24,963 bases of DNA from a virus. The stretch is taken from positions 1 to 24,963 of IMG/VR virus record IMGVR_UViG_3300017585_000072; one strand, given 5' to 3'. The notes beneath the pieces were generated by a model. The model had not been told where the DNA came from. It made no database searches and saw only the letters and a program-made list of their open reading frames with translations. The position numbers and the translations under genes were made by a program. This document shows positions 9,125-9,931 of the stretch, piece by piece (positions within the stretch are counted from its first letter, which is position 1; every line of letters starts with the position of its first letter).

Positions 9125-9931
9125 ATGAGTGTACATGATGAACTTGGCAAAAGAATGAAAATGTACGAGAGTGTATCTAAAGGAACTTTAATGAGGCGAA
9201 CGCCAGTTATTGTGCGCGTCGATGGCAGATCATTCCACTTTTGGACTAGAGGATTTAAGAAACCCTTTGATACTATTCTCATTGATACGATGCAGGAAAC
9301 TATGAAATTTATGTGCGAGAATATGCAAGGTGCGGTTCTTGGATATCAGCAGTCAGATGAGATAACCATTGTCCTTATTGATTATCAAAAGATTACATCC
9401 GACGCGTGGTTTAATAATGAAGTGCAGAAAATTTGCAGTATTTCCGCGTCCCTTGCAACTTTAGGTTTTAATACAGCCTATTCCCGCAATATACAGAAGA
9501 TTCAACTTCCTCTTACTCTTGAGTATATGTCAGATGAGAAGCAGTCAGCATTTTTAAAATATTATCATACTTATCATGATAGAGCTAACGAAGCTATGTT
9601 TGATGCTAGATGTTTCAACTTACCAAAAGAAGAAGTAACTAATTGTATTTATTGGCGGCAGCTAGATGCAACGCGTAACTCTATTCAAAGTGTTGGGCAG
9701 GCTTATTTTTCTCATAATCAATTAGATAATAAGACTTGTAATGATATCCAGAATATGCTTTTAACTGAAAAGAATATTAATTGGAATGATTTTCCTACTA
9801 CTCAAAAGAGAGGAAGCTGTTGTATAAAGAAAGATGGTAGGTGGATTATCGACAATGAAATTCCTATCTTTAAACAAGAGGGAAGAAAGTACATTGATAA
9901 TTTAATCTTTTTAAAGGAGGAGCAAATATGA
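9125..9931 (+). CDS. Thg1-like protein (tRNA-His guanylyltransferase family, 3'-5' polymerase)
   Basis: VIVRVDGRSFH (Thg1 VVVRLDGRNFH), KPFD (KPND), YQQSDEITIVL (YGQSDEYSFVF), FDARCFNLP...IYWRQLDATRNS (FDGRVVVYP...LSWRQADCHINN). Both catalytic Asp contexts retained. Confidence 0.75.
   Translation: MSVHDELGKRMKMYESVSKGTLMRRTPVIVRVDGRSFHFWTRGFKKPFDTILIDTMQETMKFMCENMQGAVLGYQQSDEITIVLIDYQKITSDAWFNNEVQKICSISASLATLGFNTAYSRNIQKIQLPLTLEYMSDEKQSAFLKYYHTYHDRANEAMFDARCFNLPKEEVTNCIYWRQLDATRNSIQSVGQAYFSHNQLDNKTCNDIQNMLLTEKNINWNDFPTTQKRGSCCIKKDGRWIIDNEIPIFKQEGRKYIDNLIFLKEEQI

Follow-up and report, generated by a model that had tools for sequence, protein, structure and literature searches.

Identification of a Thg1-like protein gene

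The viral DNA analysed here is IMG/VR virus record IMGVR_UViG_3300017585_000072, positions 1 to 24,963, and this whole stretch of 24,963 nucleotides is referred to as the window. It contains a gene that almost certainly encodes a bacterial-type Thg1-like protein (TLP), surrounded by a group of predicted RNA-repair genes. The features of the TLP gene are listed below, with reference to the TLPs of Bacillus thuringiensis (BtTLP) and Methanosarcina acetivorans (MaTLP) and to human Thg1.

9125-9931, + strand: TLP gene, a single open reading frame (ORF) with an ATG start at 9125 and the stop included to 9931, 268 amino acids (aa)
9221-9223, + strand: D33 codon gat (read directly), the first metal-binding carboxylate (BtTLP D30, human Thg1 D29)
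9353-9361, + strand: S77-D78-E79 codons tca gat gag (read directly), the activation-step serine and the catalytic carboxylates (BtTLP S74-D75-E76)
9473-9598, + strand: variable insert, residues 117-158, between the long palm helix and strand 159-165, absent from BtTLP
9815-9853, + strand: β-hairpin, residues 231-243, equivalent of the MaTLP tRNA-elbow 'ruler' hairpin, with model strands 231-236 and 239-243

The preliminary description of this DNA had proposed a match to Thg1 from sequence motifs, and all of them are found in the ORF translation: VIVRVDGRSFH at residues 28-38, KPFD at 46-49, YQQSDEITIVL at 74-84, FDARCFNLP at 159-167 and IYWRQLDATRNS at 175-186. Profile searches bear the match out. 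The Pfam Thg1 profile (PF04446) is matched over positions 2-130 of 130 with an E value of 3e-29 and a score of 102 bits, where the curated cutoff is 29.2, and the PHROG 4717 profile, 'tRNA-His guanylyltransferase', aligns its positions 2-244 of 250 with residues 4-266 (E = 9.8e-84). The C-terminus scores below threshold with the Pfam Thg1C profile (17.7 bits, cutoff 26.3); despite this score, residues 156-264 align with residues 125-240 of BtTLP at E = 1.7e-26, and the BtTLP alignment and the structural match described below each span the protein from end to end. The NCBIfam search of the protein gave no match to a TLP model, the only match being a spurious one of 14 bits to ApmA.

To examine the conservation of individual residues, we used an alignment of the TLP with 46 homologs of 59-73% identity (alignment A1, 47 sequences). 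The catalytic acidic residues, which the preliminary description had recognized by their sequence context, align as expected: D33, D78 and E79 correspond to D30, D75 and E76 of BtTLP and to D29, D76 and E77 of human Thg1, and are invariant in A1. Regarding the activation step, S77 is invariant and K46 is at least 90% conserved (S74 and K43 in BtTLP, S75 and K44 in the yeast enzyme). The residues for triphosphate binding and nucleotidyl transfer, R31, K102 and R162 (equivalents of R27, K96 and R133), are also invariant. The roles of these catalytic and substrate-binding residues have been defined by experiment in BtTLP and Thg1 (PMC3701042).

An AlphaFold2 model of the monomer, built from A1, has a mean predicted local distance difference test (pLDDT) score of 87.3 and a predicted TM-score (pTM) of 0.84. 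In the model, the protein is predicted to adopt the RRM-like palm fold together with the Thg1-specific C-terminal extension. Enzymes of the superfamily are homotetramers, arranged as dimers of dimers whose active site lies at the dimer interface. A Foldseek comparison with the PDB gave 32 matches at E ≤ 0.001, every one a Thg1 or TLP structure aligned over about 250-286 columns; the best is 4kgm_B, a BtTLP chain, with an E value of 5e-28, a target TM-score of 0.89 and 43% identity. Judged by its residues, the protein is presumably a catalytically competent, template-dependent 3'-5' RNA polymerase.

Subtype, insert and elbow hairpin

The HINNLYN motif, a eukaryote-specific anticodon-recognition motif (PMC6471195), is absent from the protein, which carries WRQLDATRNSIQS at that position. 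In sequence searches, the best match is BtTLP (structure 4KGK) with an E value of 2e-61, followed by MaTLP (1.8e-10) and by the eukaryotic Thg1 proteins of human, yeast and Candida (at least 1.6e-8). By sequence, the protein is of the TLP type, that is, the repair type, and not of the eukaryotic Thg1 type.

Two peripheral parts of the molecule show distinct differences from the characterized TLPs. First, the alignment with 4KGK breaks into TLP residues 5-118 and 156-264, leaving the insert between them. An insert of about 40 aa is present in every member of the A1 clade, with 36-50 aa and a variable sequence, and in the phage TLP it is modelled as a loop and a helix (residues 137-151) with pLDDT values of about 88-90. 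Second, the segment of the hairpin from C233 to W240 has 8 residues, the minimum for a clade in which it ranges from 8 to 40 with a median of 20; BtTLP has 17. In the MaTLP-tRNA complex this hairpin binds the tRNA elbow and measures the length of the acceptor stem, and its deletion abolishes tRNA binding (PMC4820378). The lengths of the insert and the hairpin are not correlated across the clade (Spearman -0.19, p = 0.2).

RNA-repair genes around the TLP gene

The genes surrounding the TLP gene are as follows.

4983-5885, + strand: bacterial-type poly(ADP-ribose) glycohydrolase (PARG), a macro-fold hydrolase; Pfam PARG_cat_microb 72.9 bits, PDB 3SIG E = 1e-20
5863-6639, + strand: metallophosphoesterase, candidate RNA 3'-end healing enzyme; Pfam Metallophos 46.9 bits, phrog_246
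6632-7636, + strand: RlaP-family Pol-beta nucleotidyltransferase, RNA-ligase-associated; Pfam RlaP 29.5 bits against a cutoff of 23, phrog_388
8525-9123, + strand: three small ORFs (58, 77 and 64 aa) in the ORF list, tightly packed directly upstream of the TLP gene
9928-10365, + strand: 145-aa ORF whose start overlaps the TLP stop (ATGA); one weak homolog, 34% identical, in another repair cluster (L076)
10449-12913, + strand: Major Vault Protein (MVP) homolog, here in two ORFs; Pfam MVP_shoulder 79 bits, and Vault_3
12910-13758, + strand: SPFH/Band-7 protein; Pfam Band_7 61 bits, phrog_200
14161-14604, + strand: putative metal-dependent phosphohydrolase; phrog_990 E = 7.7e-13 only, no Pfam match
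14787-15590, + strand: metallophosphoesterase of the type commonest beside TLP homologs; Pfam Metallophos 45.6 bits
16077-17264, + strand: ATP-dependent RNA ligase of the Naegleria Rnl5 type (N-terminal OB and nucleotidyltransferase domains); Pfam PHA02142 and RNA_ligase, PDB 5COT (NgrRnl) E = 3e-36, phrog_968
17989-18477, + strand: polynucleotide 5'-kinase (PNK), P-loop, kinase domain only; Pfam AAA_33 76.8 bits, phrog_505
18646-19200, + strand: third metallophosphoesterase; phrog_547 E = 1e-43, Pfam Metallophos 30.6 bits

The TLP, RlaP, Rnl5-type ligase, PNK, PARG and three metallophosphoesterase genes thus lie on one strand within 15 kb. The PDB matches of the PNK are the kinase domain of Clostridium Pnkp, Pnkp1 and T4 PNK. 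RlaP proteins add one or two nucleotides to RNA 3'-OH ends (PMC12776372).

Several smaller ORFs of the region were also compared. The N-termini of the three small ORFs upstream of the TLP gene look alike by eye (an acidic run followed by I-I/L-x-x-Y/H-F), and we considered that they might be paralogs, but phmmer gave no cross-hits at E < 0.01. A phmmer search also showed no homologs of these ORFs in related loci. For a 92-aa ORF at 19187-19465 (+ strand), neither Pfam nor PHROG gave a match; homologs of it sit between the genes for the RNA ligase and RlaP in ten viral loci (E values down to 2e-15) and in L063, and it is a candidate for a small protein that works with these two enzymes. An 82-aa ORF at 17280-17528 (+ strand), immediately following the RNA ligase gene, matches Pfam PTS-HPr with 26.5 bits against a cutoff of 23, and its homologs follow the ligase or precede the TLP gene in L074 (53% identity) and L067. 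Lastly, an ADP-ribose/NAD theme recurs near TLP genes, with the PARG described above and single hits to PARP, NAD synthase, NAPRTase and isochorismatase in other viral neighbourhoods. This theme may be linked to ADP-ribosylation of RNA ends or to NAD-depleting defences.

Conservation of the repair-gene linkage

We compared the neighbourhood with those of related TLP genes, whose loci carry numbers with the prefix L. A homolog of the ligase, RlaP or PNK lies within 10 kb of the TLP gene in 21 of 30 related viral loci, and in five of these loci (L003-L006 and L026) the genes for Rnl, a small ORF, RlaP, PNK, TLP and a phosphoesterase are packed into a tight cassette. The viral loci include many near-duplicates. 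Dereplication reduced them to 12 groups, and with the window counted the repair linkage is present in five of 13 (p = 0.026 against a 14% null, a crude value taken from a 20-kb span in a 140-kb genome). A BLAST-independent Pfam scan of 89 neighbour ORFs from 12 representative loci found Metallophos four times, RNA_ligase and HD three times each, AAA_33/PNK twice, and PTH2 and PARP once each.

For prokaryotes, one genome per species was scanned, which gave 183 TLP relatives, of which 80 were kept as loci in genomes or metagenome-assembled genomes (MAGs). Within 8 kb of the TLP gene in these 80 loci, a metallophosphoesterase of the 14787 type was found in 25, often directly adjacent, one of the 18646 type in 15, an RNA ligase in 12, RlaP in nine, a PARG-like protein in eight (directly upstream in L046, L069 and L083), PNK in six and MVP in three. 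Rnl, RlaP or PNK was present in 18 of the 80. In L083, the whole gene set of the window is found in 14 kb with the order changed, and L076 and L096 likewise contain a subset of it. Because gene order is shuffled while membership is retained, these loci are good evidence for a functional linkage. The linkage of TLP with repair genes is frequent, not universal.

Proposed role in RNA repair

Building on the homology, active-site residues, fold and gene linkage observed here, we infer an activity, a substrate, an order of steps and a connection with attack on the host. We consider it probable, with moderate confidence, that the TLP is the 5'-end rebuilding enzyme of a phage-encoded RNA-repair toolkit. 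The toolkit would serve during infection, when tRNAs or other structured RNAs have been damaged by stress or by nucleases of the host. First, PNK would convert 5'-OH to 5'-phosphate ends, and the metallophosphoesterases would clear 2',3'-cyclic phosphates or 3'-phosphates and so heal the 3' ends; RNA ends that carry ADP-ribose-type adducts may be cleared of them by the PARG-type hydrolase. The TLP would then bind RNA in which the 5'-phosphate end is recessed and base-paired with a 3' template strand; the prime candidate is an acceptor stem that has been truncated. Using ATP or GTP at the two-metal site formed by D33, D78 and E79, with the assistance of K46 and S77, it would activate the 5' end and subsequently add Watson-Crick-templated nucleotides singly in the 3'-5' direction. 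RlaP would extend damaged 3' ends by one or two nucleotides. Finally, the Rnl5-type ligase would seal the remaining nicks; we take its Naegleria counterpart, NgrRnl, to be an enzyme that seals nicks in duplex RNA. The preliminary description had likewise suggested repair of 5'-truncated tRNAs during host attack, which fits a neighbourhood containing an RNA ligase, PNK, RlaP and phosphoesterases. In vitro, tRNAs with truncated 5' ends are repaired by TLPs (PMC3701042, PMC6471195, PMC4820378).

A number of points weigh against this proposal. We know of no established in vivo role for bacterial-type TLPs, and of no host defence or nuclease that trims the 5' ends of tRNAs. The known anticodon nucleases cut loops, where a templated 5' fill-in is no help. 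Since the searchable literature appears to contain no experimentally characterised phage TLP, the activity of the phage protein rests on homology, at the structure-based 43% identity to BtTLP. Its elbow hairpin is minimal, and therefore its tRNA recognition may differ or be weak. Seven of the 12 dereplicated viral groups and about three quarters of the genome loci have no Rnl, RlaP or PNK in the flanks examined, and the p value for the viral linkage weakens if the null is raised. The window itself contains no tRNA genes, and an Rfam search at E ≤ 1 found no tRNA-like, Y-like or other recognisable RNA. One ARAGORN match, a 94-nt tRNA-Ala(cgc) at 17013-17106 (+ strand), was rejected as a false positive, as it lies inside the RNA ligase ORF and has no Rfam match at the same threshold.

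tRNA genes beside related TLP genes

In two related loci, tRNA arrays lie directly upstream of the TLP gene, with ten tRNAs in L014 and five in L022. Acceptor stems are fully paired in 14 of the 16 phage tRNAs found beside TLP homologs. The exceptions are a tRNA-Met with A1xA72, which we read as initiator-like, an unpaired 1:72 being a hallmark of bacterial initiator tRNA, and a tRNA-His with two internal U.U pairs at positions 4-5. The latter, at 3857-3932 of L014, has its consecutive U.U mismatches at 4:69 and 5:68 and scores 50.9 bits with Rfam, below its neighbours. It encodes G-1 opposite C73, and this is the sole G at position -1 among the 16 tRNAs.

These tRNAs bear on two other accounts of the TLP. 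The addition of G-1 to tRNA-His had been put forward in the preliminary description as an alternative to 5'-end repair; the TLP would supply or restore G-1 of host or phage tRNA-His for charging by histidyl-tRNA synthetase during infection. Bacterial tRNA-His genes, however, normally encode G-1, and the only phage tRNA-His beside a homolog already has G-1:C73, so a dedicated G-1-adding enzyme is not obviously required. DATRNSIQS in place of HINNLYN and the far greater proximity of the phage TLP to repair-type BtTLP than to eukaryotic Thg1 also argue against this role, as do neighbours that are general RNA-end repair enzymes and not tRNA-His-specific factors. On the other hand, the family takes its name from this activity, MaTLP adds G-1 in a second mode of binding that depends on the anticodon (PMC4820378) and BtTLP adds G-1 in vitro (PMC3701042). 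As addition of G-1 opposite C73 is templated, replacing a G-1 that had been lost would itself be repair of a special kind. We regard G-1 addition as the function of the phage TLP as decidedly unlikely.

The second account is 5'-editing, in which the TLP would mature phage tRNAs with mismatched 5' acceptor-stem nucleotides by refilling the stem after removal of the mismatches, as in mitochondria. This is the sole established physiological role of a repair-type TLP (DdiTLP3; PMC6471195), and the arrays of L014 and L022 adjoin TLP genes. The neighbouring phage tRNAs, however, have intact acceptor stems in all but the two cases above, and the U.U pairs of the tRNA-His are at 4-5, not at the edited 5'-terminal positions 1-3; the window, moreover, is devoid of tRNA genes. 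The 5'-editing account is thus largely refuted, and we give it next to no weight. The preferred reading remains the rebuilding of damaged 5' ends.

Predicted transcription units

The following signals flank the block of genes that contains the TLP gene.

8441-8465, + strand: terminator-like hairpin with a 10-bp stem and T-run, closing the upstream transcription unit
8464-8492, + strand: promoter-like site (TTTATT, 17-nt spacer, TG-n-TATAAT) upstream of the small-ORF/TLP block; a consensus match and one of six motif copies
13757-13779, + strand: strong terminator-like hairpin with a 10-bp stem, six GC pairs and T-run, ending the TLP/MVP/Band-7 block

Terminator-like sites are enriched in the region, with 20 observed against 10.1 ± 3.4 in shuffles, and the strongest hairpins are found in intergenic gaps (8441-8465, 13757-13779, 17534-17557 and 19489-19521). 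The promoter-like motif, TTGA(t/c)t, 17 nt and TGnTATAAT, followed by a purine-rich ribosome-binding sequence of the AAAGAAAGAAGGA type, occurs in six intergenic copies (about 4983-5011, 8464-8492, 10382-10415, 13782-13810, 16016-16044 and about 22900-22940; alignment A3) and recurs between genes in the syntenic locus L001. A scan for σ70-type promoters gave counts not above those of shuffles, and the assignment therefore rests on the conserved, repeated motif. The motif is probably a host-type extended -10 promoter, and its positions suggest that it marks the boundaries of transcription units. The predicted TLP block would comprise the three small ORFs, TLP, the ORF at 9928, MVP and Band-7, with an internal promoter before MVP.

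Major Vault Protein homolog and a possible non-tRNA substrate

The MVP homolog is full-length in related contigs, with 838 aa in the near-identical JGI contig L031 (11325-13841) and 837 aa, intact, in L001 (5919-8429), and it is collinear with eukaryotic MVP (residues 320-806 against 323-808). Compared with L031, the copy in the window lacks 52 nt after position 11456 and is thereby broken into two ORFs, through either strain-level decay or an assembly error. MVP homologs occur in three of 50,697 phage records, all of them huge uncultured phages, and MVP is found together with TLP in L001, L044, L074 and L083.

Beside the repair/MVP cluster, positions 1-691 of L031, just upstream of the position of the first base of the window, encode a DUF2828/DUF7788 protein that carries a metal-site motif of the vWA type, DTSGSM. 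A vWA/DUF2828 homolog with 45% identity lies upstream of the TLP gene in L076 (642-1334). The vWA/DUF2828 protein and MVP recall the vWA-containing partners of eukaryotic vaults.

The substrate of the TLP might also be a non-tRNA molecule, that is, another structured RNA or a nicked or gapped duplex, possibly associated with a vault-like or Band-7 structure, which the TLP would gap-fill or 5'-adenylylate for the Rnl5-type ligase. The minimal elbow hairpin and the clade-specific insert would suit such a substrate, as would the Naegleria Rnl5 type of the neighbouring ligase. TLP, MVP and Band-7 share one terminator-bounded block, and the MVP-TLP linkage recurs in the four loci named above. Ligation via 5'-App formation was raised in 2010 (PMC2904730), and some eukaryotic TLPs act on non-tRNA substrates (PMC6471195). 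In contrast, all biochemically tested TLPs accept tRNAs, the TLP genes of L014 and L022 directly follow tRNA arrays, and the window offers no candidate noncoding RNA at the Rfam threshold used, the ARAGORN match being inside an ORF. We consider a non-tRNA substrate unlikely.

A further proposal goes beyond the substrate. The TLP, Rnl5-type ligase, RlaP, PNK, phosphoesterases and PARG might act on or in a phage vault-like assembly, made up of MVP, Band-7 and vWA/DUF2828 proteins, that protects or repairs RNA in infection. We rate this as improbable. If true, the assembly would be a prokaryotic-virus counterpart of the eukaryotic vault ribonucleoprotein, and the insert and minimal elbow hairpin of the TLP would reflect docking to the assembly or to a non-tRNA client RNA. 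Repair of RNA 5' ends by the TLP toolkit remains the reading we prefer.

Occurrence in phages and relation to earlier work

The preliminary description had placed the gene in a phage, and the rest of the window agrees with this setting: it also encodes an endolysin, RNase H, topoisomerase II and a tail-like protein associated with a diversity-generating retroelement. The viral contigs most closely related to it have lengths of 100-170 kb. A nucleotide search of positions 8000-12000 of the window against phage records gave no match, and hence there is no close sequenced relative among them.

The retroelement was noted separately. Its reverse transcriptase lies at 963-2153 (- strand; phrog_1423, E = 1.6e-62). 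The template repeat of 102 nt is at 2463-2564, and the variable repeat, at 3174-3275, lies in the C-terminal region of the tail-like protein gene (3138-4898, - strand). The two repeats are 85% identical, and all 15 of their differences fall on template adenines in the gene-strand orientation.

Homologs of the TLP are present in 162 of 50,697 phage records (0.3%), with 27-58% identity in tblastn, all below 60%, and mostly in large genomes. Phage-borne copies are thus uncommon, as the preliminary description had it, but the family is established there and most of its members are already annotated, as tRNA-His guanylyltransferase or Thg1. A metagenomic protein collection contains at least 8000 TLP candidates at E ≤ 1e-10. 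Sporadic occurrence of this kind would be expected of a horizontally acquired passenger gene with no important role in the phage. Against this, a large clade at 55-74% identity shows no variation in the catalytic residues, and the ORF is intact and tightly packed in a conserved functional neighbourhood, in contrast to the MVP gene, which shows apparent decay in the window. We judge a passenger gene to be very improbable.

The 80 prokaryotic loci belong mostly to gut and rumen Clostridia (Lachnospiraceae and related groups). The idea that the clade is also cellular was rejected for the one case examined, a TLP copy in a complete Lacrimispora chromosome (L038), which is surrounded by phage genes. 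Together, the gut and rumen loci and this copy suggest that the host is one of the Clostridia and that most of the clade is carried by phages or prophages.

Regarding prior knowledge, Anantharaman, Iyer and Aravind reported Thg1 in the caudovirus 201phi2-1 in 2010, described conserved neighbourhoods in which Thg1 is accompanied by genes for polynucleotide kinase, Macro-domain proteins and RNA ligase, and predicted that it takes part in RNA repair (PMC2904730). In their 2021 survey of RNA-repair functions of jumbo phages, Iyer et al. listed Thg1 as an enzyme of sporadic occurrence that restores 5' ends, and RlaP as the nucleotidyltransferase associated with the ligase (PMC7824862). The novelty implied in the preliminary description was therefore overstated, as these two papers had already presented phage Thg1/TLP genes, the repair hypothesis and the linkage of the genes with those for PNK, Macro-domain proteins and RNA ligase. 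With the family, its phage occurrence and the hypothesis already in print, the TLP by itself adds little that is new; the repair context in the window is unusually complete.

Comparison with known systems

BtTLP (4KGK/4KGM) is the best match in both sequence and structure. It has the same carboxylates, the K43/S74 equivalents and the triphosphate-binding arginine and lysine, and like the phage TLP it lacks HINNLYN. One difference is the short linker of BtTLP in the place of the segment of about 40 residues at 117-158, and the hairpin is 17 residues long compared with 8 in the phage TLP. In addition, the phage TLP is encoded inside a phage RNA-repair gene cluster. MaTLP (PDB 5AXK-5AXN) shares the fold (Foldseek E of about 1e-15) at about 25% identity; however, its 18-residue hairpin, R198-R215, grips the tRNA elbow, whereas that of the phage TLP is minimal. 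The mechanism of Watson-Crick-templated 3'-5' addition at a dimer interface is modelled on the MaTLP-tRNA complex (PMC4820378).

Members of PHROG 4717 in Fusobacterium phage Fnu1 (gp147), Bacillus phage G (gp378) and Pseudomonas phage 201phi2-1 ('putative Thg1') resemble the TLP of the window in their full-length profile match and in being phage-borne, mostly in large genomes. Fnu1 also has a prohibitin/Band-7 gene, about 650 bp downstream of its TLP gene; in the window, Band-7 is farther away. The isolate-phage members differ in that they are mostly about 235-245 aa, without the insert, and none is closer than 47% identity; the top match, at 57.8%, is a faecal metagenome contig. The eukaryotic Thg1 proteins of human, yeast and Candida (3OTB, 5XOX, 3WBZ and 7CV1) share the superfamily, the fold and the two-metal active site, but their structure-based identity is 17-21% and they have the HINNLYN motif that the phage TLP lacks. 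Eukaryotic Thg1 reads the tRNA-His anticodon and adds a non-templated G-1 (PMC6471195).

Among prokaryotic and phage RNA-repair systems, for which T4 Pnkp/Rnl1 is the paradigm, the window has in common a ligase, RlaP, a kinase, phosphoesterases and, in Band-7, a scaffold candidate. A repair syntax of this kind, 'ligase + nucleotidyltransferase + end-healing + scaffold', was reportedly set out by Burroughs and Aravind in 2016. The cluster in the window differs in being dispersed over about 15 kb and several predicted transcription units instead of forming one operon, and in including a homolog of full-length-type MVP, which is very rare in phage records.

Implications

The MVP homolog is the most unusual neighbour of the TLP gene and the one likeliest to repay further work; a vault-like assembly is speculative and would have the highest pay-off. 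Reverse (3'-5') RNA polymerases are a curiosity of biochemistry, and the phage copies in repair clusters are the clearest genomic hint that the bacterial-type enzymes may rebuild damaged RNA 5' ends in the conflict between host and virus. The repair hypothesis predicts a host activity, as yet unknown, that damages the 5' ends of RNA. The locus and the large clade of gut Clostridia phages define the set of partners for such a role: a kinase, phosphoesterases, RlaP, a nick-sealing ligase and PARG.

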